A stretch of DNA of 64,000 bases, taken from Amoebophrya sp. A120. Its lineage: Eukaryota; Protista; Dinoflagellata. This document shows, one piece after another, positions 1-61,434 of the stretch. The notes below the pieces were generated by a model. It was not told the origin of the DNA and did not search any database. It saw nothing but the letters and a program-made list of their open reading frames with translations. The stretch is from assembly GCA_905178155.1 (NCBI GenBank), contig CAJINV010000003.1, positions 331,091 through 395,090 on the forward strand, read 5' to 3'. A program made the translations under genes and the position numbers. Numbering within the stretch: position 1 is the stretch's first letter; the number at the start of each line of letters is the position of its first letter.

Positions 1-3000
1 CCGGGCCGTGGCGGAACCCAAGCAGCCCGAGGCGGACTGGTTCATCGTGGGGGCGGGGAACGACAACGAGAAGCCCATCGACGAGGACGAGTTGCTCGCG
101 GAGCTCCGCTATCCTGTGCAAAGGTATCGTACTCGTAGTCACTGCAGTCATGCATTACAAATCTTTTCCCTAAGGCAAATCCGCATTGCAAATTTGATTT
201 CTCAATCTGAGGAAATTTGTAATGCATTTATACGAGTGCGATACTTCTGGTTCTGCAGTTCATATCCACGCCGAAACCGGGAATCCGGACTACCAGCTGG
301 AAAAGGAACTGCGCCCCATCGCGAACAACAACGACCTGATTGCCTGGCTGGTGCGGTCCATTCTGTCGCACCGCGCCAACGTGAACATCATGAACCTGCG
401 GGGCGACACGCCCGTGGTAACGGCGATCCGCAACGGCCACAACTGCGAGGTGGTGAAACTGCTTCTGGACTACAAGGCGCACGTGCAGTATCGCAAGCGC
501 CCGCTCATCGAAACCGAGCCGGACGAGGAACTACCTCCCGAAGAGGAAGAAACCGATAACAACAAACCGCCGGACGACGCCGAGGACAAAGACCGGCGGA
601 AGGTTCTAGACGACGAGCAGTACCTGTCGGCCCTGACGATCGCGGTGAAGTGCCGCCGGTCACCGGAAACGCTGCTGACGATTCTGATGCAAAAGAAGGT
701 GGACTGCAACGTGGTGGATTGTGACGACATATCCTGTGCAAAAGTATCGTACTCGTATTGCAATCATGCATATACAAATCTTTAACTTTATCTTAAGGTA
801 AATCCGCATTACAAATTTTATCTCTCATGCTGAGGACATCGACATTTGTAATGCTTTTATACGAGTACGATACTTTTGCAATGCATACGACATCAAGCAG
901 AAATCGCTTCTGCACTACGCGGTCCGCCAGCGTGACATCGCCTTGACGGCAATTTTACCCTGTGCAAAAGTATCGTATTCGTATAAATGCAAGTCTTGCA
1001 TTACAAATATTTTTCTTAACGCAAATCAGCATGACAAATTTCATTTCTCATGCTGAGGAAATTTGTAATGCATTTATACGAGTGCGATACTTTTGCACTG
1101 CATAAATTTTGCTGCAGTCCAAGCGGACGGAACAGCTGGATTGCAACATCCCGGACTTCCTCGGGTGGACGCCGATCTACGAAGCCATCGACTTGAAGGA
1201 CGAGGCCATGGTGGAGCTGCTCGCGGACTCGCAGCTGCAGATCCGGCAATTCAACGATTTGGGGCCAAAACTGTGGAAAACCGTGAGCGGGTGGCCGACG
1301 GCAGTGCGGAAGCCCACGATCAAGGACCCGAAAACCGGACGGAAGGTGCTGCGCGACCCGACGTATGCATTGCAAAAGAATCGCACTCGTATAAATGCAT
1401 TAAAGATTATTTCCTCAGCATGAAAAAAATTTGTATATGCGGACATACTTCAAGTTTGTAATGCATGATTGCAATACGAGCGCGATACTTTTGCACAGGA
1501 TACGACGCGGGTTAGGGTCGACGTGCTGGACAAGCAGGGGGTTTCGCCGCTGTGCCACGCCATTTTGAAACGGTGGGTCGAGGGGGTCAAGTGCCTCTTG
1601 AAATTTTGGCCCTCGATCGCGTTCTCGACGGGGTTGCCGCTTCGCGTCGCGTGCCGGCTGACGGACGTGGTGACGCGGGGGGACAGGGCCCGCCTGGAGA
1701 TCGTGGACCATCTGCGGATGATTGGGTCCGAGCTATTCCCCTCCGTGGTCGAGCAGGGGCACATATGCATCGCAAATATGTAGTCTGGGTCTGGAAAGTT
1801 GGAACTTGTCATGCTAAAAAGTCTGGATCCGTTGCAAAAAATATATGTGTTGCGTGATTTTTCCCCAGAAAAGTTGTCAGCGTTTGACGGAGTAGTTGGA
1901 GGGAGTTTCTCATGTTCATGTAGGATATAGGCATGGTTGCACTAGAGATCTTACACAATCAATCTGTCACGCTAGAAGGTCCTGCATTCCAGAATCCAGA
2001 CCTCATTGGTCATGGAAAACCCGCGTGACAAGTTTTGCAATATTGTTCCAGACCCAGACAACATATTTGCATTTGATAGCACACCCTGGCGCACGACGCG
2101 GAGCTGATGCGGCTGATCCAGAAGCACGAGGAGGCCGAGAAGCTGAAGCGGCAGCGGGCCGGAATGGATCCGAAGGCTCTGGAGCGGCAGCAAAAGAAGA
2201 AACGCAAGGAACTGGGCCTCCGCGACGACGAGGAGCTCCCCGGCGAGAACGACAACTTTGAGGACCCGGTGTCCTACTACGTATGCGAAGAAAAAAAAAT
2301 ATGTGAGTGTACTTAAATCCGTGATGCAAAACACACAACATAGTTACCGCTGTCATGCTGGCCAGCCATCAACTCCTGTTTTCGTATGTGTTTTCCTTTT
2401 CACGTACAGGCTGCGCATGACAGGTTTTCTCTGTCATGCAGTGACAGGCTTTCTCTGTCATGCAGAGCAAATTTATCATGCTGTCACTCGCCAAGACACC
2501 TACACTCACGCAGTTTTTTTCTTGGATACTACGTGCGCAACTACTACAATGACCCGGGCTCCGACGAAAATTCCGCGGTGTATGCCGCCATGCAAAACGA
2601 CGCCAAACTGCTGGAAGTTCTCTCCAAGTACCGACCGCCACCCGGCGTGGCCTCGCCGGACTACCCGAATCGTGCGCCCACGTCGGACCATCTGACGGCC
2701 GCGCTCTGCGTGCCCAACATCAACCAAGATATGCGAAGAAGACAGTGTTTTACAGTTTTCACATAGTGTGCTGTTCTTGCAGGAGACCAGGCAAGAAGAT
2801 AGATACGTGAAATAGAGGCCTGTCATCTTGCTGGATAGACTCGGGACGAGCCTGGTTTGTTCATACGCGTTGATAGTTGATTTCCCTCACGATGTCTGCA
2901 TTCTTGCGTGTTTTCTCTGTCATGAAGACGAGGAGCACGTTCTTTGTGTTGCTGAGGTTAATACGACAAGGGCAACAAGTGTGTAAAAACAGTTTTTTCT

Positions 3001-4004
3001 GGCCGCAATAGAGGAGTGCGCGCGTATCCTTGTGGAACACAAGGCGGATCCGAACGGGCAAATGTACGTGCACGACGCGATCGCCGCTGCCATCCTGGAA
3101 AACATTCGCGGCAAGCCGAAGAGGGAGGCTTTTCTGAAGGGCCTGGGGAAGTACGAGCTGACGGACCGGCGGGAATTCGAAGACACGATCTTCGCGGTTA
3201 CGCACTCCGACGCGGTCACGCTGCACACGACCCAGATTGGGCTGGGGCGCGCAACCGAGGAAACCGAGGCGCGGTGGGATCCCGCGGTCGCGACGGAGAT
3301 GATCCGCAACCCGCGGTTCAATTTGCACCAGCAAAAAACGGCCGCGAATGTGCTGTCCGTTCCGAGCAGTCGCGGCCGTAACGCTTTGGCGCAGCAGCAG
3401 GAGAAGAGCCAGTTGGTGCGCGGGTTGCCGCCGCACGTGGAGATGCCCCGGGAACCGCCGGCGAAAGAGCGGGAAACGAGTCCGTTGCTGAAAGCAGCAG
3501 ATCAGGAAGACATCATCAGCGAGGACTTTTTGCGCGACCAGGTGTCACATCTGCGGGAGCGGCGAACGCCCGCCATGATTGCCTGTACCACGGGCAAGCC
3601 AGATGTGTTGGCGCTGCTGGACGCCCGCGGAGCCGATATTGAGGCCATGGAATCAACCTCTGGTTGGTCCACGCACATCTACGCCGCACGTGCAAACCAC
3701 CTGCAGAAGGTGGCCCTTGCAAGTCTAAGAAATGCCTGATACTTCAACTTACTTTATTTGTATCTATTACTTTGCTGTGAACCTGAACTTGAAGGGGTAC
3801 GCTGGAGAAGCTCCTTCGCCAAAGAATCTAGGTGGCGCGCATCTTCGCGGAATCGACCGTCTTCACACGAAGGTCTTGCCAGGGTGGGTGTTTTTGGGAG
3901 GTGCTGCAGCACCAGTGGTGACCCGTGTTCGCCAAGATACAACCTGGTGCATGTCCGAAAATTACTTTACTACGTTTGATCATCATGAAAAAATGTATGA
4001 ATAG
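1..4004 (+). CDS. Ankyrin-repeat protein (5'-partial, split by 7 introners; 3' end uncertain, 3709-4004)
   Basis: Removing each element plus one 5-bp TSD joins one frame with ankyrin motifs: NLRGDTPVVTAIRNGHNCEVVKLLLDYKA, DIKQKSLLHYAVRQRD, DFLGWTPIYEAI, DKQGVSPLCHAI, RRTPAMIACTTGKPDVLALLDARGADIE. Confidence 0.8.
110..264. mobile_element. Introner, family A
   Basis: TATCCTGTGCAAAGGTATCGTACTCGTA...TACGAGTGCGATACTT...GCAGTTCATA; TSD TCCGC/TCCAC. Confidence 0.85.
730..887. mobile_element. Introner, family A
   Basis: TATCCTGTGCAAAAGTATCGTACTCGTA...TACGAGTACGATACTTTTGCAATGCATA; perfect TSD CGACA; removal gives DCDDIKQKSLLHYAV. Confidence 0.92.
956..1104. mobile_element. Introner, family A
   Basis: TACCCTGTGCAAAAGTATCG...CGATACTTTTGCACTGCATA; TSD AATTT. 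Confidence 0.9.
1364..1502. mobile_element. Introner, family A (inverted orientation)
   Basis: TATGCATTGCAAAAGAATCGCACTCGTA...GATACTTTTGCACAGGATA; TSD CGACG. Confidence 0.9.
1764..2078. mobile_element. Introner, family B
   Basis: TATGCATCGCAAATATG..TCTGGGTCTGGAA...TTCCAGACCCAGACA..ATATTTGCATTTGATA; TSD GCACA. Confidence 0.9.
2282..2528. mobile_element. Introner, family C
   Basis: TATGCGAAGAAAAAAAAATATGTGAGTGTA...TACACTCACGCAGTTTTTTTCTTGGATA; TSD CTACG; removal gives VSYYVRNYY. Confidence 0.85.
2730..3010. mobile_element. Introner, family C-like, degenerate
   Basis: TATGCGAAGAAGACAGTGTTTTACA...TGTAAAAACAGTTTTTTCTGGCCGCAATA; decayed TSD CAAGA/GAGGA; the 5-bp offset still restores the frame (NINQECARILVEH). 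Confidence 0.7.
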
Positions 4005-4100: not shown

Positions 4101-5952
4101 ATGCGGCGCATTGTTCCACCTCGGTTGCTCCATTCGGGTGGCCGACCCTCATGCGTCGAAACGGGTCGTTCTTCCCTGATATCCGGCAGCGACAGCTGCT
4201 GCTCTTGCACGAAAAGGGAACTTTTTTTCCCTGCTCTGCGTTGCGATTTGAAGACGGGAGGTGATGGAGGCACGTCCAGCTCTTCGTCGAGCAGCAAGGC
4301 CTTCATCTCTTGGCGAAGGAGAATGAGCAGTGCCGTGACGTCGACCCCATCCGCAGACGAACTGCTTCGAGGAGGTGGAGCACCAGCCGGAACTACTTCT
4401 ACTGGACGCACGACAGGACGGACGAGCGAGCTGCAGCACCAGTGGACCACCCGAAACGCGCTCCCGCTTCCGAGCATCGGCGGGACTAGTAGTATCAGTG
4501 CTACTACAGTCCTGCCAACCGGGACGAGGTTTTCGCGAACAAGCGGCAAGAACCAGCCACATGAAGTTCTGCAGCGGCAGTCGTTCTGGGAATTGCGGTC
4601 GGCCTTTCTGGACGAGCTTTTTCGCCAGCAATTCAAGTACCAGTTGAAGCCCCTCGGGATACTGCCCATCTGGGCCCTGCAGCGCACCGTTCCAAGAAAT
4701 GAGTACCGGTTCATGATGGTCGCCACCTTCCCGCTCGTTGCGCTCACCGGAGCTGCGGTGGCTATGCACCTCTACTACACGTCGTCGACCACATCGACCG
4801 GCACCTCCGCGGAAGAGGACGAGGGAACAAGTACAGAAAAAGAGAATTATCCTGCCGGAGCAGCAGTTACACTTACTGCACAGCACCAAGACGTCGGGAC
4901 CACGCGGGTTTTCCAGGTAAACCCGGGCGTACTTTGCAATTGGGCCCTGATGTACGCGTGGATGCTGTTGATCGGAAGGTCGGCAATACACTACGGGCTC
5001 CAGCTCGGGGAATTTGCTGTGCCAAACGTGAGCAGCTGGGGGGGAAACCTGTTCCTGTCCCGCCTGCTGCCGCCGATCGGCTTCTTCCTGCTCGGAACAG
5101 CTCTTCTAACCATGTGCGAAAGCAACGACCACTGGCGCGACGCGAATCAACTCACTCTGCTGGCGTACATTTTCATTTTCTTTCATTTTATACTGCAGGG
5201 TTGGGATTCTGAATGTGATGCAAATTTGAGTTGTAGAAGAACATCTCAACTACAAGCAATTTTGAATTTGTTCATTGGATCAAAAAAAGCTCAAAAAAAC
5301 AGGTTCATGGTGCAATTCTGGTTGTATGACTTCTGGAATTTTCATCACGGCGGACTGGCACCGCAGTATTGGGGTCCCCTGTGCATGGCGCAGTCTATTG
5401 CGTCCATGCTGTGTCTGCAAACGATCGGCTACCTCATGCGGCAGTACAGCGTGGCGACGGCGGAAGCAGGGGAGTTTCGCATTTTCCCCAAGGAGGAAGA
5501 AATCGCAAGAACCGCCACGGTACCAAATGCAAATATGTCCGGGTCTGGAAACTTGTGATGCTAAAATGTGGATGATGGAAACAGTTGCGAATGCAACACA
5601 GCATGACAACTTTTCGAGACGCCTTTTCATAGGCAATCCGCATGAGAAACTGCGGTTTTGCATGTACAAAAGAGGCTGCGACTTGTTTTGTTGGTTATGC
5701 AATACATCAGATTTCCTAGGTATGCAAAGCTAGCATTACAAGTCCCACTCTTCCAGACCAAGACATATTTGCACTGGATAAACGGCAGCAGCCGGGGAGC
5801 AAGAGCAAGCAGCCAGGGGAACCACGATGGGAAAAGCCGCGTCAGGGCGTGGAGCAATAATCGATGACATTAACGCTCACATCGATTCGTGGCTTGGGAT
5901 CTCAGCCTCGAACACGCCGGGGCAAGAGCCTCCTTACAAAGTTGGAACATAA
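4101..5952 (+). CDS. Multi-pass membrane protein, unknown function (start codon uncertain)
   Basis: 485-aa ORF with several hydrophobic segments; continues in frame after the 5521-5780 introner (ATAAAGEQEQ...KVGT*) to TAA at 5950-5952. Confidence 0.6.
5521..5780. mobile_element. Introner, family B
   Basis: TACCAAATGCAAATATGTCCGGGTCTGGAA...TTCCAGACCAAGACATATTTGCACTGGATA; TSD CACGG/AACGG. Confidence 0.88.
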
Positions 5953-9618: not shown

Positions 9619-12600
9619 ATGCCCTTGGTAAACCTGGATGATCTGTTTCCGCCCAGCAGCGTGGAGTCTTCGGGCTCGGACGAAAAACTGGAGCACGTAG
9701 TTTTCTTGGGCGAGAGTAGGCAGAAAGTCACCGTGGAGGCCAGGGAAGAGGGCCTGACCGAAGAGCTGTTGAAGAAGGTATCTAAAGTGACGGGCGTGCC
9801 CGTTCGGTTTCTGCGGCTCACCGCGTTCACTGCTCCTGGGTACGGCGATGACACAGACGAACAGACCACCTGGAAACTTCTGCCGCTGGACACCCGTTAC
9901 AGCCAAACGAAGCAATATGCATCTTCGGATACGGATAAAGGAAATACTAGTACAACTGGTGATGAGGTGGATGGAGATGGAACAGCAAGAACATCCGGGC
10001 CGCGAGGTAGAAAACAACTCAAGTTTCACTTGACGCAAGTTTTGAAGAAGACGGACTGGGTGAGCGTTTTGACAGAAACGCAGCAACTTCTGGTGGCAGA
10101 CGGGACGCTGGCGAACCTGCCAGCCGATGAAGAGATTTCATCTGGCGGTGACGAGGAACAAGACGAGGGGTACTATTCAAGCAGCAGCTCCGGGGGGACA
10201 TCGTCATCAAGTGTCGTGTCCGATGACCCAGAGACCGCTGCGGCAAAGCAGGAGGACGCAGTATCAGAATGAAAAATGCCCCCACCCCCGAACTTGAAAG
10301 CATTTGTATTGCAAACCTTTCCAAATGAAACATTCGCCCTCTTGCACCTATCAGCATCACAGGTTTCCAATCGTGAATAGCGAAAATTTGTATTGCAAAA
10401 GACCCCAGCAAGAGCGGCGCTTGTCATGCAAGCGATGCGATAAACGCCTAGACTCTGCATCAGAAAGATTCATACTCCTTTCATGCATGACAAAAAGGTT
10501 TCATTTGGAAACTTCGCATCACAAATTTTTGCAATTTGAGGGGTGGGGGGCACTTTTCACTGTAATACGCAGAGTGGAGCTACATCGCGTCACTGTGGTT
10601 TCTATCAAATGTAAAAATGTCTGGGTCTGGAAGATTCCGATATTTGTCATGCAGTTTCTCCAAGCTCCACCAAGTCTGGAATGCAGGTCCTAGCATCACA
10701 GGATCTGCAGCCCCTTTGTGATGCCTGTTCTGCATGAGAAATGCCCCCTCAGCATGGCCAGAAATGAGCGCCTTTTATTGCAAGTCACGCAACACAGATT
10801 TTTGTATGATGCGCAACATGCATCACAAGTTGCATCCTTCCAGACTCAGACATTTTTGCATTTGATAGTTTCCCGAAACTGAGAAGGGCGATGTCGCGCA
10901 GGTCTTAGCCGCCATGGGTCGAGATGAAAAGAGTGCGAGCAGAACAAGGAACGACTCTACTTCTATGAAAGGTCGTACGATGAACACCAGAAGTGCTCGT
11001 GCCGGGAGCCGCGGTGCCACGGCAACTGAAGATAGAAGTGATTTTCCGCACCAGAGAATGAGGAGCAACCCTAGAGAGGAAGCCGCGCGGAGAAAAAAAG
11101 AGGAGCTCACAGTGACCTCGGTCAACGCGCCGGACATGAATGGATGGACGCTGATGGGACTTGCTTGTGCCCGGGGCCTGCCAAAATTGCTGACGTACGT
11201 GCTAGAAACCCTGGCCAGCGTCGAGCTGGTAAATCTGAGTCTTCGCGTGGAGGAAACCTGTAGTTTTTTGCGTAGTAGTTCGTCCATTTTTGCAGATGGG
11301 GATGCAATTGAAGAAGAAGAAGTGGAACAAGAACGGGAGAAAGGCTTCTTGAAATCACCCGCACAAGAAAGACCTCGGACGTCAAATCTCAAACGGAATC
11401 AAGACACGCCCGAAATGAAAATCAGACAGCGTTGGCGAAACCTTCCACCGCTTTTAGCCGCTATTCGCTATAACCCGTCGGACGCCTCCTCCGCGGAGGT
11501 GGTAGCAATCCTGCTGGATCAGGGTTTCGATGTGAACCCGAACGTGCGCGAGGGAGTCCGGTCGGACGGCTACACACCCCTACTGCTCGCGATCAAGAAG
11601 GCAAAATGGCAAACCGCAGCCGTGCTCTTGCAGAACGAGCGCATCGACGTGAACTGCATTTTGGAACAGGAAGTACCAGCTGCACGGACAGCAGCTGGAA
11701 CTACTGTTGAAAATAAAGGCCGCGAAGAAGGAGCAGTAGAGCCTTCAACACTGGTGGAGGGATCTTCTTTACGTTCGCAGGAAGCTGCGCTCGTCGGAGG
11801 CGATTTAGTAGACCAAGATGTTGTAAAGAAAGCGGAGATCATTCTTGTGCCAAAGATCATGAAGAAAAATACGAAGATTCGCACGAGATGGCCGTTGGGA
11901 TATTTTTCCAAGCGGTGGCGCGAGCTGCTGAAGCCTGAGGCGGAGGGGGAGCGGCAATTTTTGGCAAAGCTGGTGGCGCACCCGCTGATTTCGCCGGATC
12001 TTGTGCCGTCGGCCAAGAGCAAGGAGGACAAGAACAAGAAAACTCGAAGATCGAAATCCCCCCCACCACTGGACGGGGAGAAGATTTTTGAGCAGCCGAA
12101 GCCGAAGCGCATCCCCACGTGGTGTAGTTCGGTGATGGAGGCTCCCCCGCATGGGCAAAACGCTCTCATCTCCGCCTGTCGCTCGGGCAATGTGGTATTC
12201 GTGGAGATTTTTCTCACCCACTGCCTGCCAGAGAAGGTGTATCCCAAGAAAAAAGTGTATACAGTTTTTTTACACGACATCTGTATGCAACTTCAGCAAC
12301 ACAATAGACTTGCTCTGCATTTACAGATGAGAAATACAACTTGCAATGCGTCGATTCATCGTCCGAAGGGGAAACACGTATCAAACGAGGCTCGCATGCC
12401 TTTGCGGCATGAGAGAGGTTGTCTGTCATGCGCGTTCTGCAAGAACACATTGTATGACTGTAACAGTAACACTTTTTTCATTGCACAAATTGACGCGCGT
12501 GATCAACCGGCTCGACGACTTATCCTGTACAAAAGTATCGTACTCGTAGTGCAATCATGCATTACAAATTTTCTTGTTAAGTCAAATCCGCATATACAAA

Positions 12601-13374
12601 TTTTGTTTCTCATGCTAAGGAAATTTGTCATGCATTTATACGAGTGCGATACTTTTGCAATGCATACGACTACGCACGCTCTGCGGTCTATGAAGCAGCG
12701 ATTTTTTTGTCCCGGGACGCCACGGACACTGTGCGAGATATGGGATTCTCAAACGTTACATTCTCAACTGTTAGATGATTTGTCATGCAAAATTACCATA
12801 AGCCGCCGCGCCAGGGTCAGACGACCAAGGTTCTTACTTCGCGTGACAGATTCTGAAAGGGCGGCTAGGCAGCATCTAAACCCGTTCCCAATTTGTGATG
12901 CGAGAGTTGCGAGCTTGGGCTTGCCGATTACGATTTCACCGTTGCCGTTCTTGCGTCACATCAAATTGATGTATAACAGTTGAGAATGTAACGTTTGAGA
13001 ACGCCATGCGGGACTCGAAGAAGGTGGCGGCGGACATGGTGGAACTGCTTCTCCGTGTTGACAACATCGACGCGGGGCTACCCGACCTGGAAGGCTACCA
13101 ACCCCTGCAGCGGGCAGAGCAGCGGGGGTACGAGAAAGTGAAGCGCTTGCTGATTCGGGAGTACTACGAGAAGCACGGCCTGAAGTTCGAGCTCACGCGA
13201 GAGCCGCAGTACGAGATTAACTTTTTCCGGCTCCGCATCGGGGAGCAGCCGTGGCGGGGAGATCCGCCGTTCGGTGTCACGGGGAAGGAAATTTGGCACG
13301 ACTGGAAGAGAACAAGTCCGAGGTTTGGAAAGAAAGTAATCGTGACCGAGACCACTGCGACATTCTTCGAATGA
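9619..13374 (+). CDS. Ankyrin-repeat protein (5 introners, 3 micro-exons)
   Basis: ORFs 9619, 10914 and 13006 join via micro-exons AEWSYIASLWFP, TRVINRLDD and YARSAVYEAAIFLSRDATDTVRD. Ankyrin motifs: DMNGWTLMGLACARG, DGYTPLLLAIKK, GQNALISACRSG, DLEGYQPLQRAEQRG. Confidence 0.8.
10262..10567. mobile_element. Introner, family D
   Basis: TATCAGAATGAAAAATGCCCCCACCCCCGAA...TTGAGGGGTGGGGGGCACTTTTCACTGTAATA; TSD CGCAG. Confidence 0.88.
10603..10867. mobile_element. Introner, family B
   Basis: TATCAAATGTAAAAATGTCTGGGTCTGGAAG...CTTCCAGACTCAGACATTTTTGCATTTGATA; TSD GTTTC. Confidence 0.92.
12240..12487. mobile_element. Introner, family C-like, degenerate
   Basis: TATCCCAAGAAAAAAGTGTATACAG...CTGTAACAGTAACACTTTTTTCATTGCACA; decayed TSD AGGTG/AATTG; frame restored. 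Confidence 0.65.
12521..12666. mobile_element. Introner, family A
   Basis: TATCCTGTACAAAAGTATCGTACTCGTA...CGAGTGCGATACTTTTGCAATGCATA; TSD CGACT. Confidence 0.92.
12739..13008. mobile_element. Introner, family E (inverted relative to the 26369 and 41694 copies)
   Basis: TATGGGATTCTCAAACGTTACATTCTCAACTG...CAGTTGAGAATGTAACGTTTGAGAACGCCATG; TSD CGAGA/CGGGA. Confidence 0.88.
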
Positions 13375-21640: not shown

Positions 21641-23539
21641 ATGGTTTCAGACCAGCAGTCCCTGATGCGCGAGGACCACTACCAGTATGGCGGCAGCATG
21701 TCGCTGAACCGCGACGGAGGTCCGGTGGTCGACATCGAGCGTTTCATTGAGGCGGAGCGAAAGTTCGTCGCTTTCCAGCAGGCCGGGGATCACGAGAAGG
21801 CTGTGAAGGCTCTGGAGGCGGTCCTGCGGCAAAACAAGCAATTCGTGCAGAACCTGGAGGATACGCTGCTCAGTTCCCTGTTCGAAAAACTGGCCGTCGG
21901 CTACAACACGCTGGGCATGAAATTTCTGAAGCTCGGGAAGACGGACCTCAGCTTGCGCTACTTCCAAAAGTCCGAAGTGGTGACAGACCCCGCAAACTTG
22001 CACATCCACACGAACACAAGGTACGTCTATTCTGATGCTATGCTGCTTCAAGCGCTGGGCCCTTTTTCGAATGATATTTCTAAGCTTACCTACCTCGCGG
22101 CCACCTTTTCTAACTCGGCAAAATCAGATTGGTCCTACGTGCGGTGACGTACAACAACCTTGGCTGCTTCTACAAAAGTATGAACAAATTGCACACCGCG
22201 CTGCACTACCTGCGAAAGGCCCTCGTCATTGAAGAGCGCGGCTTGGCAGAGAGAAGACACATGGAGGACGAAAATGGTACAAACATGGGAGTTCCACATG
22301 CATTTATTTTTTCTTGTTTGGACGTCGCTATTCGAAAACGAGATTGGATTCCGTTTTCCTATTCCGTGTGCATCTTGTCAATCTTTGATATGACGGGGTA
22401 TTGCGGTAGACCTAGTGGTCCTCTGATCCCCCGTAGGACGAAAACGAAACTATACTTAACTACACACAATCTGAAATAAATCGGGAAATCGAAATACCAG
22501 CAGAGGATAACCCTGATCCGGACGAGAGTGTAGCAGCTGCTCCCGCAACATCCGGCTCTTCGTCTGGGGCACAGAACCCAGCGGCTACGCACCTGAACTT
22601 GTGCGCGCTGTTGTCGCAGATGTCCATGTATCGAATACAAATATCATATCTGGGTCTGGAAGAGTCATGCTGTTTTTGCATTTCACAGGATGTCTGTCAT
22701 GGAAGCCCTAGCATCACAGATTTCGAGAAGCTTCCGCATTGCTTAATCCACATGACAAGTCCCCCACTTTGGTGACAGGAAGTGGACATCTTTTGCTGCC
22801 TGCTATGCATGAGAAATTTGTATCTGAGTCTGTGTTGTGAAATGCGCATCACAAGTTCGCATCCTTCCAGACCCAGACATGTTTGCAATGCATACCATGC
22901 ACGAGAAGGCGCTGTACCACGCGCAGAAGGCGATTAAGTTCCTGCAGCAGGACGAGGCGCGGCGGAAGGAGTTGCTGCGGCGGCAGGAGGAGGACGGTCC
23001 CGCCGCCTCGGACCAACAAACCGAAGCCGCGGTGCAAGCCGCGGCCGCGACGCGGCAAGACGAGTCTCTCACCCCCGTGGCATACTTCAACATGGGAGCC
23101 GAATACGAGCACTTGAAGTACTACACCGAGGCGCTGGATTATGACAAGAAATCAAAGGTTTCGTCAGAGCACTGGTTCTTGTGCAAATAAATTCGCGAAT
23201 GGATCAAGCAATGTCGGCTCGATGTGTAGTGCTTATCTATGCATGACAGTATCAGTACTGGAGAAGGAAATTGATAGCACCTGCGATGTTGATTAAGGTC
23301 AACTAGGAGAACTTTGACAGCAGGAGCTGCATGTCATTTCAGTTTCGTCAAGTTTTTTGTGAACTGTGCTGGTGAAAATTTCGTTTCTTGCCGATAAGAA
23401 AGCCTACGGCCAGGCGTACGAAGCCTGTCTGTCGGAGCTCGGTGCCGGACACGCCCTCACCTCGAAAATCCTGGACAGCATCAAACAGCTGAAAAAAAAC
23501 CTGGGGCCTTCTAAAACCAATGCGAAGGGGAAGAAATGA
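21641..23539 (+). CDS. Tetratricopeptide-repeat protein (multi-exon)
   Basis: TPR motifs AVGYNTLGMKFLK, AVTYNNLGCFYK, ATHLNLCALLSQM, VAYFNMGAEYEHL; mixed GT-AG introns and two introners; stop TGA at 23537-23539. Confidence 0.8.
22629..22894. mobile_element. Introner, family B
   Basis: TATCGAATACAAATAT..TCTGGGTCTGGAAG...CTTCCAGACCCAGACATGTTTGCAATGCATA; TSD CCATG. Confidence 0.9.
23140..23396. mobile_element. Introner, family F, old copy with eroded TSD
   Basis: TATGACAAGAAATCAAAGGTTTCG...GAAAATTTCGTTTCTTGCCGATA; removing the element plus 5 bp gives EALDAYGQAYEAC in frame. Confidence 0.65.
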
Positions 23540-37142: not shown

Positions 37143-40100
37143 ATGGCGAAGGCTTCCGTTGCGCCCTCGGACATGGCCAACATGGTGGATGTGCAGCAAT
37201 ACGCCAACCCCGCCAACAAGACTGCCCCCTCCTCGATGATGGAAGACCCTTTGACGGATTACAAGTTCAATAATGGGGAATTTTCCAATTTCGGATCCAC
37301 CCAGGGCGGAACAGCAGGCATGGGAGCAGGCTCTGCCGGCGGGGGCGCAGCAGCTGCGGCCAACGGGGGCGGCTTCATCGGTTTCCTGGCCGGAATGTCG
37401 GGGAAGATGATCGTGATCGCGGTCTTTGGCATCGGCGCTGCCGTCGGCGGCATCGGCGCGATCGTGGCGTACGTGGTTGCCACCGGCGCGGCGGACAACT
37501 CGGGCGCAAATTCGTTTCCCGCGGGCGAAGGCGTCGCGCTGCACACCGGAATCACCATGGACCAGGTTGCGGGCCACAACTTCAAGTCCTCGTGCTGGAT
37601 CGCGGTACACGGCAAGGTGCTGGACGTCACGGAGTGGCGCAAGGAACACCCGGGCGGCAAAGACGCGTTCACCTGCGGGGAGGACAACACGCAGAAATTC
37701 CAAAACCAGCACGGCGGGGTGGAGTCGCTGGAGCGCCGGATCGCGCAGCAATCGCAGTACGTGAAGGATTTAGGAAAAGTCGCGACACTGAAAACAGGTT
37801 CAGGTTCTACGTCGAGCTCCACGTCCTCTTCCTCTAGCAGCGGAAGCAAAAAAATCGAGTTCGATTTCTCGAACGTGCAAAAGCAGCCGCACCCGGGCAG
37901 CGGCGCCGAGTGGAAGACCATGGTTTACATCGAACTGAAGGGCGGCGTGGACGGTGCGGCCATGTTTGTGAACGTAAACAACCCGGAGGAAGTGAACCTC
38001 TGGTGCGGCAAGCGCCCAACCTTGTCCGGTGAAAATTACTGCACCTGCCTGGCGCCCAGTTCTACCGCGGCGGCCCAGGACTGCACCAGCTGGCAGCTGC
38101 GCCGGGGGCCAACCGGAAATGCGGACGACCGATACGTGAGCGACATGGCCGGCACGGCGGGGCAGCTGGCGATGACGGACGTTTTGGGGGGCGGGTCCAA
38201 GGGGTGGATGCAACTGTGGAACGAGAACAAGATGTCAATCGTCGCGGGCGTGGGCCGGTACGACCACGGCCGCTCGCACTTCGAAGTCAAGGACGCCGCA
38301 GCAAAGGGCGTGTCCGTAGCAAAGGAGGCGGAAACCACGCACGGGTGGTTGGCCAAGAGCATCTTTGCGTACAACAATCTGTACACGCATCCGCCGGATT
38401 CCGCGAAAGCCAAAGACCCCGCATTGCCCGACGGGATCTCGTTGGCAAATGCCGCCGCCGGTCCGAACGCGCTGGAGGTGTCGGACGACTCCATCTCCCA
38501 CACGACGTTCCAGCACATCTCCGGCGTCAAGTCGGTCGACGGGGTGGTCGCGTCTTCCAAGTTCGATTTCGTGAACCCCTTTACCGCGGCAAAAATGATG
38601 GCCGGGTCCGGTTCGTCTCTGAGAAAAAGAACCTTGGAAGGAGCGGCTGAACAAGTCGCAAAAAATTCTCTGGTCGTGCCAGAAGAGGACTCAGCTTTAC
38701 TCAGTTCGACTTCCGAGGACATTATTATTCCACCTGGAGGCAACAACTACGTGGATCATGCCGAGCAACCGCAGTGCGGCGCCCGGTACGAGCACGCGAT
38801 CGGAGGTGGATCATGGGGGGTGAAGAACAGTAATATTGGCGATCATTACAATGATTTGCTCGCAACTGAGCATGCAAACACGGTGCAGTGCATCGAGCTC
38901 CGGCAGATGACGGACGAGGAGGAGTGGAGCACAACCAAGAGCAACCTCGGTCTGGAGGAGCTGCTCGCGAAGGAGGCCTCGATCTTCCAGGGTGTGGGCG
39001 TGATGCAGGAAAAACTGGCGCAGTACCGAGACAATCTGTCCACCCTCTGCCCCAACTTCCCGGCGACCGCCGAGTGGGCCGACAGCTCCTCGGACGCGCA
39101 GATCGGCATGCAGCTGCGCGCGGTGGCCATTTTGCTGGTGAACGGCGTGCGGCCGAAAGTGTTCCAGCTGCAGCAAACGAAGTACGACACGCACTCCAAC
39201 CAGGGCGCGCGCCTGCAGACGCTGCTGTCCGACCTGAAGACCGGCGTTTACACGTTTGTGCGCGCGGCCGAGGCGTGCGGCTTTGCCAACGACGTGCTTG
39301 TGACAACGTTTTCCGAGTTCGGGCGCCGGCTGGAGGAGAACAGCCGGATATGCATTGCAAATACGGCTGGGTCTGGAATAAAAGTGACACTTGTAATGCA
39401 TATCTTGCATTCCTGGAGAATCTGTGTTGCATGAGCAGCAAAAGAGCAGCTTCCTTTGTTATGCAAAAACGCAATTTGTCATGCGTGCTAGGCATCACAT
39501 TCAGAACGAAGCAGGCGTCTCGAAAACTTGTCATGCTTGGCTGCCATTGCAAGGGCTTCAATCGTTTGCAATTTAGCATCACAGGTTTCCAGACCCAGAC
39601 ATATTTGCAGTTGATACCGGAAGGGCACCGACCACGGGTGGAGCAGCTACTTCGCGGTGTTCGGCACGGTATCAATTGTAAAAGTGTCTGGGTCTGGAAG
39701 AATGCAACTTGTGATGCTGCGTCTGCATTATCGAAAAATCTGTATTGCATGAACAGCAAAAGAGGTATGATTTTGGCCACGGCGAGAGGGCATTTCTCAT
39801 GCGGTATAGGCATCAGAAAGCCCTCACAAGATCTGTGATGCTAGGGCATGCATCGCAGACATCAGGAGTCATGCAAAATGTGCATGACAAACCTTGCATC
39901 CTTCCAGACCCAGACATTTTTGCATTTGATACACGGGGCTGCAGCGCAAGGTGTTCGGGTACGACCCCGTGAAGCAGAGCGCGGAGTTGGGCAGCATCAT
40001 CCCGTATCAACTGTAAAAGTGTCTGGGTCTGGAAGAATGCAAACTTCTCATGCATATTTTCCATGCCCCATGAGGTTTGGAAAGCAGGGCCTAGCATGGC

Positions 40101-43100
40101 AGGTTATGCGACGTCCCTACTATGCCTATCCTGCATGGCAAACTTGTTCAAAACTGCACAGCTTTTGGTAGTCACGCAACACAAATTTTTGTACGATCCA
40201 GACTTAGCATGACAAGTTCGCATCCTCCCAGACCCAGACATATTTACAATGCATATCCCGCGCCACAGCGACGCGTACGTGGAATCGAAGGGGACCAAGG
40301 GCGACCTGCCGCTGATCACCTCCGTGCAGACTTGGAACGCGTGCCTGCTGAACGCACTGGCCCTGCCCGCGCTCCCGCGGCTGGGGCGCTGTCCGCTGCG
40401 GCTGCGCAACGGCTTGGCGCAGATCCCCTACTACGAGGAGCAGCAATACTACAAGCAAAGCAGCGCTAGTAGTGCAACCACCGCCAGTTCCAGCACTGCG
40501 CAAACCACAACGACCGCGTCAAGTGCCACCTCGACCACCGGGAGCACGGCGCACTTGACGCAAGCCCTGACCACGACGGAATTGTTGCACTTCTCGCGGC
40601 GGATCGGGTTCGCGCCCCAGGCACTGAACTTCCACACGGATATCGCGACCGCGCGGACCAATGCGGTGCAGCAACCGACCGCGCGCAACCCGGACGGCTC
40701 GGCCAACACCACGGTTACCCTGCAGCAGGCGATTTCCCGGGTGCTCGCGCCCGCGAACACCGCCACCCCAGCGGCGGACACGCAGCTTTTTTTGAAATGG
40801 AAGATCCGCAAGTTCAACGCCCTCGCGCTGTGGAGCAAGGAACGGCAGATGCGTCGGAATAACTGGGAGGAGATCCTGCAGCTGCCCTACCCGGCGCAAG
40901 ATTCCTTTCACAACCGCGTGCAGCGCTGGGACCTGGCGCAGTTCTTCGACATGAGCTCTTTGTACATCAACCCCAACAACCCGCACGACGGACGCGTCGA
41001 CCTGCACGCGAACTACGTTGGGAAGGGGCACTTGCTGCTGCAGCACCTGCAGACAAAGGCGACCATCTTCTACATGGCGCTCCCGGTGAGCAAGGCGACG
41101 GGCAAGGCCAAAGACAATTGGCTGGACGACGACGGGAAGGTGAAGGACGAAACCAAAGTGGCCTGGTACCAAACGGTAATGCAGGTGCCGGACGTGAAGG
41201 AGATCACGGCGCTCACCGTGCAGATATCAAATGCAAAAATGTCTGGGTCTGGAAGATTTTGAGATTTGTCATGCTTGTCTGGCATGACCAAAAAGTTTGT
41301 GATGCGTGTCCAAGAGGAGACCCTTTTGCCTGTCATGCCAAAACGCACTTTGTCATGGGGAACACGCAACACAAGGAAGCGCAGGCATTTTTCATGCTTG
41401 CCTGTGCATTACAGAGCATTCACTATTCCCAACGCAGCATTACAAGTTTCCAGACCCAGACATTTTTGCAGTTGATAGCAGAAGGTGATCGACGACCGGA
41501 AGTGCAGCACCGGCGGCACCGCGACGGACCCCTGCGACCCCGAGTGCGACTTGACCAAGTTTCTGGACATCTACCACAACAATTCCACGGCGATGTTCAA
41601 GCCCGAGCACTACCAAATCTGGAAGGGCCCGGACGGCACGAAGCAGACCGCGCCCTGGTTCAAGCTGAAGACCTGTGCGAAGCCGGACAACGATATGGCG
41701 TTCTCAAATGTTACATTCTCAACTGTTACATGAATCTGTAATGCAAGAACGGCGAAAGTGAAAGGGGGAAGATTGCGCCCTTTGCATTACAGATTTGGCA
41801 CAGATTTAGACGCTGTTCAGCTCTTCGGATATTTGTCATGCGAAGTAGCTCAATCGTGGCGATCTTGGTGGTAAATTTGCATGACAAATCATGTAACAGT
41901 TGAGAATGTAACAGTTGAGGACGCCATAGACGATCGCAAGACCTTCGAGCACGAGCGCGCGAATCAGCTGAAACTGAAGATTATCAAATGTAAAAATGTC
42001 TGGGTCTGGAAGAATGCATGTTTGTCATGCTTGTCTGGCATGACTCTTAAATCTGTCACGCACGTTACCCAAGAGCTCCATTTTTCTGTGATGCAGAAGC
42101 GCAGTTTGTCATGCAGAATAGGCAACACCTAGAAGCTCAGAAACTTGTCATGCTGAGCCAGCACCTGTGGCCTCATCATGAGACGCCACCGAGCATCACA
42201 AGTTTCCAGACCCAGACATTTTTTCATTTGATAAAGATCGCCCAGTACCTGCAGGACCGCTACTTCGCGGACTTCACATCGACCTCCCTGGGGCAAATCC
42301 GGGCGCGCATGACCTGGTTCTTCCTGAACTTTTACGCGACGCCCAAAACCGCGGTGAACGACGACTTGCTGATGTACAAGCAGTACGAGACGCTGTGGCG
42401 GGGCAGTCTGGGGAACTACCGGACGCTCGCGTTACAAATGTTCAACGACAAGGCGCTGCGGAAGTCGCTGGACCAATTGGAAGAGGTCGAGTGCGGCACC
42501 GCGCCGATCGAGAACTTCGCCCGGGAGTGGTTTGAGCGGTTCACGTATAAAATGCAAATATGTCTGGGTCTGGAAGAGTCCGAACTTGTGATGCTGCATT
42601 TGGATTCCAAAAAAATCTGTATTGCATGACCAGCAAAGGGAATGCAATTTTGGCTACGCGGAGAGACCATTTGTCATGCGACATAGGCATCGCGAAGGCC
42701 TCAAAAAGTCTGTGATGCTAGGGCATGCATCACAGACATCATGGCCCATGCAAAACGTGCATGACAAGTCTCAGACAGACGTGCACGGACATGCAAAACG
42801 TGCATGGCCCATGCAAAACGTGCATGAAGGATTCGTGGCCGGGAGATGATGGTGATGGCACTTCGGTGTCCGCCTGACCTACCTTCCCTGCGTGACAGCC
42901 ATCTGCGGCCGTTTGCAAAGGGGGAGGCAAAGTGTGCCGCACTTCTGTTTAGCATGACAAGTCTCAGAATGTTCCAGACCCAGACACTTTTGCATTTGAT
43001 ATCACGGTGGGCCTGCGCGCGCACAACGAGGGTGACGTGAAACGGCTCAGCAAAGGGCTCATGAACTGCAAGGACGACTCGGAGACGGCGAATCTCGACT

Positions 43101-46004: not shown

Positions 46005-50180
<4,176 letters not shown>

Positions 50181-54141: not shown

Positions 54142-57100
54142 ATGGGAGCTACTCGGCTCTCCTGCTCGTTTCTTGCAGGTCGTGTTGCTTCAGAGGTGGG
54201 GGGTTCTGGTGGAAATTTTTTGAAGAGCGCAACAGCAGCACGATATAATTCGGCCTGGACGAGCTGGACCTCCGCTTTGGCTGCTCTACTCTTCTACTTC
54301 AGCGTTTTATTTACCGAAACTCGGGCACTGGACGGGCATTTCTGTTGGGTTATTCAGGGAAAATTTGTCACCGTCACCGTTTTGGCATATTCATTTTCCG
54401 ACCCAAAAAAATTGATTTTTTCCTGATATCCCACACATGCCCATATTGATCAGTTGTTGCAAATGTGGCCCGCGAGGCATTACACTTCGAGCATGGTGGC
54501 CCGTGTAGTTGAACGCAATCCAGAAGCGCCCCGGAATGGCTTTGCCGTCGTACAGACCAAAGACGCGGCTCCAGAAGGTCCGTTGCGAGGAGGCTGGCTG
54601 CTGGCGCATAGGGGCTCGACCCTTGCTGGGGGGCCTTCTCCATGGTGCGGCTTGCGATGTTGGGTTGCTCCTGGGAATGTCGGGCCCTTGTCACTCCTTG
54701 ACGAAAGGCCTCCGGCAAAGGACCTCCAGAACCCAGAAAAAAGCAGCAAAATTTTAAGCAAATTTAACGACCACCTGGTGACAAATCCCAGAAATTTTAC
54801 ATTTTGCACGGTATGGTGGACGTTTCCGAGCCAGATTTGTTACTGGTGACAAATCAGCAAATTCTTGCATTTTGCAAGGTATGGTGGACGATTGCGCACG
54901 GACCAAAAATTCTTGCAGCTGCAAGAATTTTTGATCAGTGCGCAATCGTCCACCATACCGCGCAAAATGCAAAATTTCTGGCATTTGTCACCAGTTCCGA
55001 TTTTGGGCTCCCAGAGTCCACCATACCGTGCAAAATGCACGATTTTCGAGATTTGTCACCAGGTCGTCGGTTAATTTGCTCAAAAAATTGCCTTTTTTTC
55101 ACGGGTAGTGGAGGTCCTTTGCTGAAGGTCTTTCGTCAAGGAGTAAGATGTGCCCGAGATGCTAAGGGGCAACCCAGCAAGACCAGCCACAGTATTCCGA
55201 TCCTCCGCGGACGGAAATCTGGTTGCTCTAGTGTCAGTAGACAGCCTCCCAGCCAAGGACCTTCTGGAGCAGCGGCTTTGGCCTGTATAACGGCAGCGCC
55301 GTTCTGGGATATTTCGGGACTACCTTCAGCGAGCTAGGTCAGCGCGCTTGAAACGCAGTAGCTAGCTTGCCGCAGTTGCAACATGTGGCAGACACGGACA
55401 CGCATACAAAGCCAGCAGAAATTCAAATTTTTTTGCTCAAAAAATGAATATGCCAAAACGGTGACGGTGACAAATTTTCCCTGAATATGGGTGGGAGGAG
55501 TATCGTGGTCTGACTGCTGCTATCCTGTGCAAAAGTATCGTACTCGTAGTAATCGCATTTATGCATTACAAATCTTTTTCTAAACGCAAATCCGCATTAC
55601 AAACTTAATCTGTAATGCTGAGCCAATTTGTAATGCATTTATACGAATACGATACTTTTGCAGTTCATAGCTGCGACACGGGTGGCGCGTTCGGGAACGA
55701 AGCGTGTTGGACCGGGGAGTTCACGTTCGAGCGATGTTGCGACCGCCAGATGCAGGGTCTGGAGGACGAGTGGGGACCGAAGCTGCTGCAGAATCTGAAG
55801 ACGACGTTATCCTGAGTAAAAACGTACCCACACCAGAGTCAGGATGGGGATTTTGCAACACAAACCTAGGAGCTTTGTAAGTCACGCATGACAAGTTGCA
55901 CTATGCAGTGTAGTGCAGGTTAGCAAGTGCAGCCGCGTCACAGATTCATCTGCTCATCCTGTTCACAGCATCACAAATTTCAAAACACGATTGGAAATGG
56001 CTCTCATGGAGATGCGCATTACAAGTCTTCCTGTCTTTGCAAATCTGCATTACAACTCTGGTGTGGGTACGTTTTTACTCAGGATAGACGTCGCACGAGG
56101 AGATGGAGGAGAGCCTGCGGAAATCACTGACCGTGGTGGAGTATGCATTGCAAAAGTATCGTACTCGTACTAATTGCAGATATGCATGACAAATCTAGCT
56201 GTTAAGGTAAATCAGCATTACAAATTTAGGTTTGTAATGCTGAGCTAATTTGTATTGCGATTTATACTAGTGCGATACTTTTGCACAGGATATGGAGAAC
56301 CGCACCATGAGTGCGCACAGTAGCGCGCTCTTCCTGGTCTTGCTGCTGCGTCTGCAACAGCGATTCGCGGAGGCGGAAGAGCTGCAGCACCAAATCCCGC
56401 AACTGCAGCTGTCCGTGAATTCCGCCACCGGCGTGTGGGAAGGGAGCAGCAGCGTCGGGTACCACATGCACGACGTCGATTTGGTGCACACCGGTTTGAT
56501 ATCCTGTGCAAAAGCATCGTACTCGTATAAATGCATTACAAATTTGCTCGGCATGAGAAATAAAATTTGTAATGCGGATTTAGCTTCAGAAGAAAAATTT
56601 GTCATGCGTGATTGCAATTACTACGAGTACGGTGCTTTTGCATTGCATATTTGATGCCTTTACTGCAAAAATACAACGCCCGTTCCGTGCTGGACCTGGG
56701 CTGCGGTGTGGGCTACTACGTCCGCGACTTCCGGACCAAGTACAGGTCCGCCAGTCAGGCGCCATTGGACCTCGTGCTCGGCGTGGACGGCAACCCCGAT
56801 ACGGTGGAGATTACCGACGGGCGGTGCACCGTGGGCGACTTGTCGAAAAAGCTGGACCTCGGCTTTCGCTTTGACGTGGTGATGTCCCTGGAAGTGGCCG
56901 AACACATTCCCCCGGAGTACGAGCAGACGTTTGTAGCGAATTTGCTGCGACACAGCGGACACCTGCTGGTGTTGTCTTGGGGCAACCAGCCGGGGCACGG
57001 CCACGTCAACAACAAGGCATCGGGGGAAGTTCGAAGCGTCTTCACCGCACACGGCTTTCTTTTCGACGAGGAAGAGAGTCGCAGGCTTCGCACAGCCGCA

Positions 57101-59337: not shown

Positions 59338-59386
59338 GGCGTCGACTGTGGCCCGCCGCACCCGCCGCTAACTACATTCCGTTGAC

Positions 59387-59893: not shown

Positions 59894-59958
59894 ATAAAAC
59901 ATGACATAGCAGCTCTTCCTGTCCCTGTGTAATATTAGATACATAGCACAAACAAATT

Positions 59959-61434
59959 ATGCCGCGTGTGACGACGTCTCAGATCGAAGCGAGCTTGCGT
60001 GCCCTGGGTACTAAGTGGAAAAATGTCTGCAGCAAAAAAAAACAAAATTGGTAGTGCAGTTTGTGCCCTTCTCTTCTCGCCCGGACTGCAGCGCGCTGGC
60101 GAGCGCCGTGGACTCCATGCTGGGGAGCTTGGCCGTGGTGCTGTGCTCCATTTTTCCTGCGTCGGTGCTCAAAGCTCCCGCGCGAGCTTGAAGGTCCCCC
60201 AGTAGTCAGCCCAGGCCTTAGTCCTCATACTTCTCGTTCTGGAAAGTAGTTGCTTTTGTCATGCTCCTGTCCAGCATGCCGCGAACCTCAGCCAGGTACT
60301 TGGGCGTAAAGCCCCTCCCGCCAAAAGTGGCAATTTGTAATGCGGGTCTCGCATTACAAATGGCCTTTTCTTGTGACTCGTTCTGGGTCAGCTTTCCGGG
60401 CCGGGTCACAAATCTGAGGCCCTGCATCAGCAGAATGCCGTGCTGTAAGGGTTCAGATTTGTGATGCAAAACGTGGCTCCGCCAAAAACGTCTGCACCTC
60501 GTCACTGAGGTCCCCAAGTGGAGGTGCAGAGCCTCTTCTTCAGCAAATTCAACTCATTCTCAAACAAGACAGGCACTAGGTAAATCGTCTGGAATCAGGA
60601 GGGAGTGTGGGAACTTGAAGAACTACAACTGCGAACCCGGGTGGACGACGTCCACCGATACCGACGCACCGAGTCCCTCGGTGGCTGAGCTGTCTCCTCT
60701 GCTTCGTCGGCCGAGGCCTTGCCGGAATACCTGGCCTACCCATTTCCTTGATTTCGTTTCATTGTGAAAAAAAATAAACACCCAAGAAGGTGCCCAAAAA
60801 TGTAGGATGCAAAAATTTTGATTTTTTTAGCTGCAGACATTTTTCAGTTTAGTACTGGGACTGGCCCTGCCGTCTCCCGCCGCACCCGCCGCTAACTACA
60901 TTCCGTTCACGAAAGTTGGCCCTCTGGTGTTTGTGAGTGGCCAGATCCCAAAGTTACCCGACGGAACCATGCACAAGGGGAAAGTTGGAGACTCGTACAC
61001 GGTGGAGAGAGCACAGGAAGCCGCACGGGTATGCGCCCTAAACATCGTAGCACAGATAAAGGAAGCCTGCAAAGATGGGGAATTGGCACAGGTAGACTTT
61101 TCATAGGATCACTACTTTTATCATCTGAAGGAAGCAGCGGCGGGCAACATCGCTGTTCTTAGATTGGTGATGATGAAGATGAAAGAGGAATCAAAGCAGC
61201 TACCTTCGCCTTTCCTGAAAAACTCAGGTGAAGAAAATAGTGAAGCTGGAAGGATTCGTGTCGTGCGGTGCGGAGTTTACCGAGCACCCAGAAGTGATCA
61301 ATGGGGCGAGCGACCTGCTTGTTGACCTATTTGGCCCAGATGTCGGACCGCACTCGCGATTCGCTGTAGGCTGTGCCAGTCTTCCGCGGGGTGTTCCCGT
61401 GGAGATCGGGGCCGTCGTCGAGCTCGATGGATAA
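59959..61434 (+). CDS. RidA/YjgF/YER057c/UK114-family protein
   Basis: PAAPAANYIPFTKVGPLVFVSGQIP...AARVCALNIVAQ...VKKIVKLEGFV...HPEVINGASDLLVDLFG...HSRFAVGCASLPRGVPVEI; element at 60009-60854 and GT-AG intron 61092-61227. Confidence 0.9.
60009..60854. mobile_element. 846-bp introner / MITE-like element with TAC...GTA ends
   Basis: TACTAAGTGGAAAAATGTCTGCAGC...GCTGCAGACATTTTTCAGTTTAGTA; TSD CTGGG; carries TGT(C/A/G)ATGC motifs. Confidence 0.88.

Follow-up and report, generated by a model that had tools for sequence, protein, structure and literature searches.

Here, we examined a 64,000-nucleotide stretch of the genome of the dinoflagellate Amoebophrya sp. A120 (contig CAJINV010000003.1, positions 331,091 to 395,090), hereafter called the window, together with 153 loci of one metagenome assembly. 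The window carries 34 introner elements, which are bounded by terminal inverted repeats (TIRs) and 5-bp target-site duplications (TSDs). Elements with different TIRs share an internal octamer, TGTVATGC, whose sites are spaced, occur in two orientations, lie near the element ends, and are kept mainly in the lineages that leave copies. Most of the elements were listed by a script and the rest by inspecting their ends; the right end of the element at 12240 was set by eye. The elements are given below with the positions and strands of their exact octamers.

110..264, family A element (about 150 bp); octamers 152(-), 218(+); TSD 4/5
730..887, family A element; octamers 806(-), 847(+); TSD CGACA
956..1104, family A element; octamers 998(-), 1029(-), 1064(+); 31-bp pair
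1364..1502, family A element, reverse orientation; octamer 1457(+)
1764..2078, family B element; octamer 1807(+)
2282..2528, family D element; octamers 2351(+), 2415(-), 2432(+), 2456(+); TSD CTACG
2730..3010, decayed element E; two sites with one mismatch each, none exact; TSD 3/5; frame stays open on removal
5521..5780, family B element; octamers 5554(+), 5601(-), 5733(-)
10262..10567, family F element; octamers 10354(-), 10422(+), 10485(-), 10516(-); 31-bp pair
10603..10867, family B element; octamers 10645(+), 10693(-), 10717(+), 10820(-)
12240..12487, decayed family G element; octamer 12424(+); TSD 2/5; right end by eye
12521..12666, family A element; octamers 12559(-), 12626(+)
12739..13008, family C element; octamers 12781(+), 12894(+)
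22629..22894, family B element; octamers 22711(-), 22846(-)
25402..25554, family A element; octamers 25444(-), 25492(+), 25510(+)
25713..25878, family A variant; octamer 25794(+)
26109..26317, family H element; octamers 26154(-), 26232(+)
26369..26606, family C element; octamers 26415(+), 26462(-), 26512(+), 26557(-)
28188..28439, family B element; octamers 28221(+), 28268(-), 28307(-), 28327(-), 28360(-), 28391(-)
28498..28753, family B element; octamers 28531(+), 28577(-), 28641(-), 28705(-)
39349..39616, family B element; octamers 39392(+), 39477(+), 39492(-), 39529(+), 39576(-); spliced with one TSD copy, 273 nt skipped
39670..39931, family B element; octamers 39710(+), 39834(+), 39882(-); spliced, 267 nt skipped
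40005..40255, family B element, orientation opposite to 39670; single exact octamer 40207(-); spliced, 256 nt skipped
41225..41477, family B element; octamers 41267(+), 41298(+), 41331(+), 41406(-), 41437(-); spliced, 258 nt skipped
41694..41928, family C element; octamers 41737(+), 41784(-), 41834(+), 41879(-); spliced, 240 nt skipped
41982..42233, family B element; octamers 42023(+), 42087(+), 42107(+), 42146(+), 42193(-); spliced, 257 nt skipped
42546..43001, family B element with internal insertion; octamers 42587(+), 42672(+), 42711(+), 42727(-), 42759(-), 42952(-); spliced, 461 nt skipped
49827..50148, family I element; octamers 49869(+), 50009(-), 50046(+); TSD 3/5; splicing inferred
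54351..55487, long-TIR element J, 1,137 bp; one octamer, 54477(-); usual tips, 5-bp TSD; empty site at 53140
55521..55669, family A element; octamers 55563(-), 55594(-), 55611(+), 55629(+); empty site at 53168
55808..56086, family K element; octamers 55886(-), 55968(-), 56016(-), 56047(-)
56142..56292, family A element; octamers 56184(-), 56215(-), 56233(+)
56500..56649, family A element, reverse orientation; octamers 56533(-), 56568(+), 56600(+)
60009..60854, element L, 846 bp, TAC tips; octamers 60257(+), 60336(+), 60351(-), 60460(+), distant from the ends; empty site at 57807

The exact octamer occurred 105 times in the window, compared with 7.4 ± 2.6 expected from 100 dinucleotide shuffles of the window, and 102 of these matches were inside the 34 elements (9,490 bp; 10.7 per kb). 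Shuffling within the elements gave 2.5 ± 1.5 octamers with a maximum of 7. The remaining 54.5 kb held only three matches (0.055 per kb), and none was found in the seven GT-AG introns of the window (1,364 bp), six of which appear as joints in RNA contigs, the seventh being implied by the contig pieces. At least one exact octamer was present in 33 of the 34 elements, at least two in 27, and both orientations in 24. The three permitted octamers ranked 1, 3, and 7 among all 8-mers when these were ordered by number of families. Refinement extended the octamer to a 12-mer, ATTTGTVATGCW, of which it is the core and in which the variants TCTCATGC and TGTATTGC are tolerated, and 159 of the 170 matches to the 12-mer matrix in the window fell within elements. 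The original prediction had described an octamer carried by families with differing TIRs, usually in several copies and both orientations, and by eye rare outside introners, and the counts agree with it on each of these points. The elements that it named contain four (2282), four (10262), two (26109), four (26369), three (49827), four (55808), and four (60009) exact octamers, all those of 55808 lying in one orientation.

The metagenome loci were retrieved by the family B TIR pattern, and 153 were stored (412 kb); family B is over-represented by this design, and statistics were therefore weighted by group. The longest BLAST matches between the metagenome and the window (at most 322 bp) were all element copies. 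The TIR/TSD caller, which made no false calls in three Markov controls, called 295 metagenome elements, and 287 of them carried the octamer. Metagenome and window copies together formed 35 clusters, and interiors did not cluster by BLAST across families. These clusters were merged by eye into 19 TIR groups after one mis-call was dropped, and the inner TIRs (positions 15 to 30) differ among these approximately 19 groups. Outside the window, 1,221 of the 1,306 nonredundant metagenome octamers were in element-homologous DNA; the other 85 were spread over 266 kb, and 40 of them were isolated.

The tips are common to the families and read TAT(G/C/T)-N6-AAA in a group-weighted logo (T 1.0, A 1.0, T 0.94; A 0.72, 0.72, and 0.92 at positions 11 to 13), the first tip bases being partly imposed by the element caller. 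To keep ends and TSDs from driving detection, 379 copies were also found by interior homology, and 345 were kept after 34 with at least three TSD or end mismatches, or an odd length, had been dropped. TAT was present at 657 of 690 ends of homology-found copies, and a perfect 5-bp TSD in 275 of the 345 copies retained from the 379. Three window insertions have empty-site duplicates in the window, each at 39/40 identity, and no target-site preference was evident at 76 insertion sites. Because the tips and the TSD length are common to them, the families are best seen as one superfamily with differing inner TIRs. The earlier wording that they are otherwise unrelated was thus too strong, and spacers are also weakly alike between groups, as described below.

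Splicing was followed in contigs of runs X1 and X4, which were taken as RNA by guess and whose contigs skip GT-AG introns too. All seven elements in 39343-43002 were skipped, each together with exactly 5 nt (one TSD copy), and their intron ends are noncanonical. The enlarged 456-bp family B element (42546) was still precisely spliced; its internal insertion of about 190 bp (42760-42940) begins with short tandem repeats. Removing each element plus 5 nt left a 98 to 100% open frame in 1-3720, 9600-13400, 27700-29800, and 37100-43330, the frame of the gene at 1-3720 being restored once all its elements were removed. The value was 85 to 87% in two further gene regions and only 31 to 41% in two regions where GT-AG-type introns, recognized by eye, had been left in. 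At the element at 49827, the X1 and X4 contigs keep only 105 nt between 49475 and 50151, and we therefore infer that it is spliced. Its TSD copies differ (GCCAT at 49822-49826 and GGCAC at 50149-50153), and the 105-nt remainder implies a junction inside the TSD, without GT or AG at the cut; such mismatched TSDs could locate the true splice position genome-wide. Coverage of the region by the 2026 raw-read runs, X10 and X11, was very thin and gave no junctions. Run X10 did contain a deep read pile (44674-44854) whose reads end in poly(A) at 44854, where the gene carrying the seven introners has its 3' end; the rest of that gene was almost uncovered in this run.

The octamers are placed regularly within the elements. 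No exact site begins before position 27 from an element end, and first sites peak at 33 to 34 and 41 to 45 from the end, facing inward in some families and outward in others. By group weight (of 18), first sites amounted to 2.4 at 33 to 35, 1.5 at 36 to 40, and 6.8 at 41 to 47. Same-direction pairs 30 to 33 bp apart were found in 14 of the 19 TIR groups (8.5 under random placement; weight 14.1 versus 2.5) and, when each group was represented by a single element, in 12 of 19 (null 3.0 ± 1.5; 0 of 5,000). The positional bias for which a check had been proposed was thus found, both in distance from the end and in spacing. Less general spacings were 15 to 16 and 45 to 48 bp for convergent pairs and 17, 35, 48, and 66 bp for divergent pairs; convergent pairs at 45 to 48 bp and divergent pairs at 47 to 50 bp were high by weight but not by group number (P = 0.21 and 0.59, respectively). 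The data did not establish a general 10.5-bp phasing of all site pairs, with R = 0.38 at both 10.4 to 10.5 and 15.5 to 16 bp. TIR tip positions 3 to 14 form a degenerate outward-facing version of the motif (P = 0.004; P = 0.0095 without families A and B). The spacers within 31-bp pairs are weakly alike across groups (0.33, versus 0.265 when shuffled and 0.29 at unpaired sites), and part of the sharing may therefore be ancient homology.

From the sequence evidence, the 12-mer is probably a duplex-DNA binding site for the mobilizing machinery, most likely one or a few related integrase-like transposases. An integrase-like DDE enzyme is suggested by the TA...TA ends and the 5-bp TSD. Its subunits would bind sites about three helical turns apart on the same DNA face (the 31- to 32-bp repeat) and also the degenerate motif copy at the TIR tip, so that the two ends would be brought together and the tip site would position the cut. 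Copies that lose sites would stop spreading and remain as introns, and splicing would use other signals, probably the paired ends and the TSD. Alternatively, the site may be needed for transposition and be bound by a host DNA-bending or chromatin protein that serves several family-specific transposases, each reading its own inner TIR. Such a protein would suit the presence of one motif in about 19 groups with differing inner TIRs as well as the two preferred end distances, which are about one helical turn apart, and it predicts the same evolutionary signature as the transposase site. However, the octamer is not enriched in host DNA (three matches in 54.5 kb; 40 isolated ones in 266 kb), and a degenerate motif copy at the TIR tip suits the cutting enzyme itself; we regard the host-protein explanation as unlikely. 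The TTTGT half is similar to HMG-box sites, and the whole 12-mer to Sox-Oct composite or HMG-box sites, a likeness which we take to be probably coincidental.

Selection on the motif was examined in nine aligned families, using base-class matching and gap filters. The motif columns formed the conservation peaks in these families, and the core/spacer substitution ratio on internal branches was 0.22 (confidence interval [CI], 0.17 to 0.27), with 0.22 to 0.25 along copying lineages across estimates. All nine families were below 0.35 on internal branches, and families 5 and 8, which do not occur in the window and thus were outside the training of the matrix, showed the same core constraint. Core changes on internal branches were mostly to tolerated variants (G1>C, 24; A4>T, 14). 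Breaking transitions, in contrast, were biased toward tips (T5>C, 53 versus 2; T0>C, 34 versus 2; A4>G, 34 versus 3), and G1>A occurred 25 times on tips and not among the internal changes listed. Ancestry and neutral decay alone are insufficient because of the enrichment, the positional bias, the regular spacing, and the core/spacer rate of 0.22 to 0.25, so that the claim of a functional site beyond common ancestry held; on this evolutionary evidence, the octamer can be considered functional. A motif that merely survives from a common ancestor, or that results from hairpin pairing, without any function tied to its sequence, would agree with the common tips and TSD length, with the weakly alike spacers, and with predicted RNA folds in which another core is the partner of 348 of the 628 paired core bases. 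Pairing alone, however, would not fix one sequence across families, and this one is kept across interiors that fail to cluster by BLAST. The relic explanation is already contradicted by the internal-branch deficit, seen in all nine families, and by the spectrum of tip and internal changes, and we give it almost no weight.

Since tip branches blend unsampled copying steps with post-insertion change, TSD mismatch was used as an age marker. No orthologous insertions between strains were found among the metagenome loci and the window, and post-insertion decay was therefore estimated indirectly from TSD mismatches. Binning of tip branches by spacer divergence was discarded as biased by regression to the mean, and it was replaced by total divergence and then TSD state. 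The ratio of extra core decay to extra spacer decay in TSD-mismatched copies was 1.02 (CI, 0.30 to 3.9; 70 versus 275 copies). With 372 copies kept, it was 0.90 (95% CI, 0.47 to 1.79; 97 versus 275 copies), and an ageing ratio equal to the internal-branch value of 0.23 was rejected (P[<0.23] = 0.0005). Strong post-insertion constraint on the core is thus rejected. The proposed check of persistence in old copies has a divided outcome: the motif is kept on copying lineages, but extra decay in copies aged by their TSDs is near the spacer rate.

The original prediction had left open whether the octamer is a subterminal transposase site or an RNA mark for splicing. Relative to transcription, the window octamers are 51 sense and 51 antisense (the genes examined run on the plus strand). 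Families insert in both orientations, and family B is spliced both ways (39670 and 40005). In a frame test, 76 of 246 testable metagenome elements passed (controls, 4 and 8); each of these 76 frame-verified introns retains an exact copy on at least one strand, and 11 lack one on the sense strand. The element at 2730-3010, without an exact octamer, restores the frame when removed, splicing here meaning reading-frame continuity only. Octamers per 100 bp in coding introns were 1.34, 1.17, and 0.47 with rising TSD mismatch (n = 63, 11, and 2), and 81% of core bases were paired in predicted RNA folds.

If the octamer were instead an RNA signal for a splicing factor, marking the introns for noncanonical excision and replacing the missing U1 small nuclear RNA, its absence from the seven GT-AG introns and its presence, on either strand, in all 76 frame-verified introns would be expected, as would a tip-branch ratio below 1 and a mild sense excess; U1 was not detected in Amoebophrya according to PMC7789003. 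Such a signal is nevertheless difficult to reconcile with the equal strand counts in the window, the 11 introns without a sense copy, the splicing of one family in both orientations, and the element at 2730. Moreover, the excess decay of aged copies is about the spacer rate, motif density drops with TSD mismatches in coding introns, and cores paired in folded RNA would be poorly exposed. We therefore consider an RNA splicing signal improbable. Of the two options in the original prediction, the subterminal DNA site fits, and the RNA mark fits poorly in view of the strand counts, the breaking mutations in single copies, and the element at 2730.

Several observations weigh against a DNA binding site for the mobilizing machinery. 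Tip branches still had a core/spacer ratio of 0.44 (0.39 to 0.49), the shortest tip bins 0.51 to 0.56, and a combined TIR and TSD age marker gave 0.59 (CI, 0.29 to 1.10); in addition, G6 changed little even on tips (0.015 versus 0.026 to 0.054 at other core positions). These values leave room for weak constraint or partial host-level selection after insertion. The 76 frame-verified metagenome introns showed a mild sense excess (134 versus 96), and pooled strand tests gave 49 versus 36 at the element level (P = 0.19) and P = 0.034 by sign flipping; any strand bias with respect to transcription would be a weak one. Apart from the 31-bp peak, there is little helical phasing, R at 10.5 bp falling to 0.24 once that peak is removed, and a period of about 16 bp fits equally well. 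Sites in elements J and L are scarce or lie far from the ends. An inner TIR that is specific to one family would usually point to a transposase of its own, which is odd with one common site. Finally, none of 124 open reading frames (ORFs; 11 from or near long elements and 113 of at least 230 amino acids from metagenome loci), in a search that covered about 0.43 Mb of nonredundant DNA, had a transposase or integrase Pfam match, and no transposase was found in A120 according to PMC7789003.

Searches elsewhere gave no matches to two TIR patterns in a viral collection and no matches in prokaryote genomes. Two matches to the motif-pair pattern in the viral collection had no TIR or TSD and were treated as chance. 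An additional explanation is spread via an RNA intermediate, in which the excised intron is reverse-transcribed and inserted by an integrase of the long terminal repeat (LTR) type and the motif serves in packaging or recognition of the RNA. The TA...TA ends and 5-bp TSDs fit LTR-type integrases too (PMC6839031 and PMC10045372), and selection confined to copying lineages would look identical. However, no marked strand preference was seen, the elements are bounded by TIRs and not by LTRs, the 5 additional nt of the excised intron are no part of the element itself, and a spacing of about 31 bp is natural for duplex DNA; we hold this route to be very improbable.

Subterminal binding repeats are known, for example, from hAT elements, whose TSD is 8 bp, compared with 5 bp in the window elements. 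The octamer resembles subterminal transposase-binding repeats in occurring in either orientation and being kept in active lineages, binding being predicted in the present case. Transposase-bound hAT repeats described in PMC3143072 (Herves, CG/AATTCAT; Ac, Tol2, and Tag1) are likewise short motifs that recur near both ends, vary by single bases, and lie apart from the TIR. In the hAT cases reported there, a given motif belongs to a single element with its own transposase, whereas here one motif spans about 19 TIR groups, a 30- to 33-bp spacing is kept, and the elements double as introns. The principle of subterminal binding repeats is thus already known, and the introners are already published. 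The A120 introners of Farhat et al. (2021; PMC7789003) have, in the text, inverted repeats that start with TAT, followed by seven looser bases and AAA; they have short boundary direct repeats, form noncanonical introns of about 240 nt in many families, and lie among co-oriented genes. The window elements match them in TAT-N7-AAA tips, boundary direct repeats, and noncanonical removal from mRNA. That text, its figures being outside the comparison, gives inverted- and direct-repeat motifs only, with neither a shared internal motif nor a rule of spacing nor a separation of transposition from splicing signals, and it argues against general transposase-mediated mobilization, none having been found in A120. 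No account of the internal shared motif was found in the literature searched, including the texts of PMC7789003, PMC12130899, and the review PMC11282704; figures and most subscription papers were beyond the search.

The window elements are like IS3EU/GingerRoot elements and A120 family 38 in their TA...TA termini (PMC6839031, PMC10045372, and PMC12130899, in the parts consulted), and the 5-bp TSD is also found in family 38 and TDD-4/5. Family 38 ("5-bp TSD, TA/TA Termini") is filed as TIR DNA/Ginger in supplement file 8 of PMC12130899, the main text of which describes an A120 Ginger-filed family without the usual Ginger termini and TSD. In contrast, IS3EU/GingerRoot TSDs are usually 6 bp (PMC10045372 and PMC6839031), and Ginger1/2 ends are TGTNR rather than TAT (PMC2836005). 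No subterminal motif array is described for Ginger, IS3EU, or GingerRoot in the cited texts as accessible. Because termini or TSD length disagree with each, we filed the window elements in none of these groups, and their putative enzyme class is drawn from the ends only.

According to PMC7789003, Amoebophrya has one of the largest known bursts of noncanonical intron gain. The shared spaced site could serve as bait for the mobilizing protein and as a signature for autonomous copies and undetected families, and it argues that many "families" form one superfamily. The mutation pattern parts the jumping signal from the splicing signal, so that the search for the latter narrows to the ends, the stem, and the TSD. 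More speculatively, one DNA-binding system reading a 12-bp word on a fixed 31-bp grid might mobilize virtually the whole set of tens of thousands of TA...TA introners, irrespective of TIR family. The inverted repeats would then be free to differ, only their pairing mattering for exon-end joining in a U1-independent cut within the TSD, and the driver would be an undescribed integrase-like enzyme or a host chromatin protein. We put this forward tentatively, as a proposal that may well be wrong; if true, the introners would be two-code elements, in which a DNA code common to all governs jumping and an RNA code of structure alone governs splicing.

Element J (54351-55487) is foldback-like, with perfect 30-bp tips, TIR likeness extending over 100 bp, and internal inverted repeats of its own. 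Its ORFs gave no Pfam match. With just one octamer, it may represent a separate mobilization subgroup. The 5' end of a methyltransferase-like gene, so labeled from reading its translation only, is duplicated just upstream of that gene (52660-53210 versus 53870-55700). The duplicate is without the insertions at 54351 and 55521, which correspond to the 39/40 empty-site matches at 53140 and 53168, and about 650 bp of unrelated sequence follows it; this is possibly gene-fragment capture or rearrangement by a larger element. The same pattern was seen at a second gene, whose 5' end is repeated upstream without the element at 60009 (39/40 at 57807; 57778-57870 and 59958-60900). A shorter third piece of this gene lies near 59350 (59350-59380), in about 2 kb of repeat-rich noncoding DNA.

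Two observations concern the metagenome loci. At L018:105-1208 lies a 1,104-bp TA...TA element with a perfect 5-bp TSD and four octamers in its first 220 bp; its 238-codon open frame had no Pfam match, and the element is a candidate deletion derivative of an autonomous copy. Loci L006, L007, and L008 hold tandem paralogous genes with 73 to 88% identity, which could be used to date insertions relative to the duplication.

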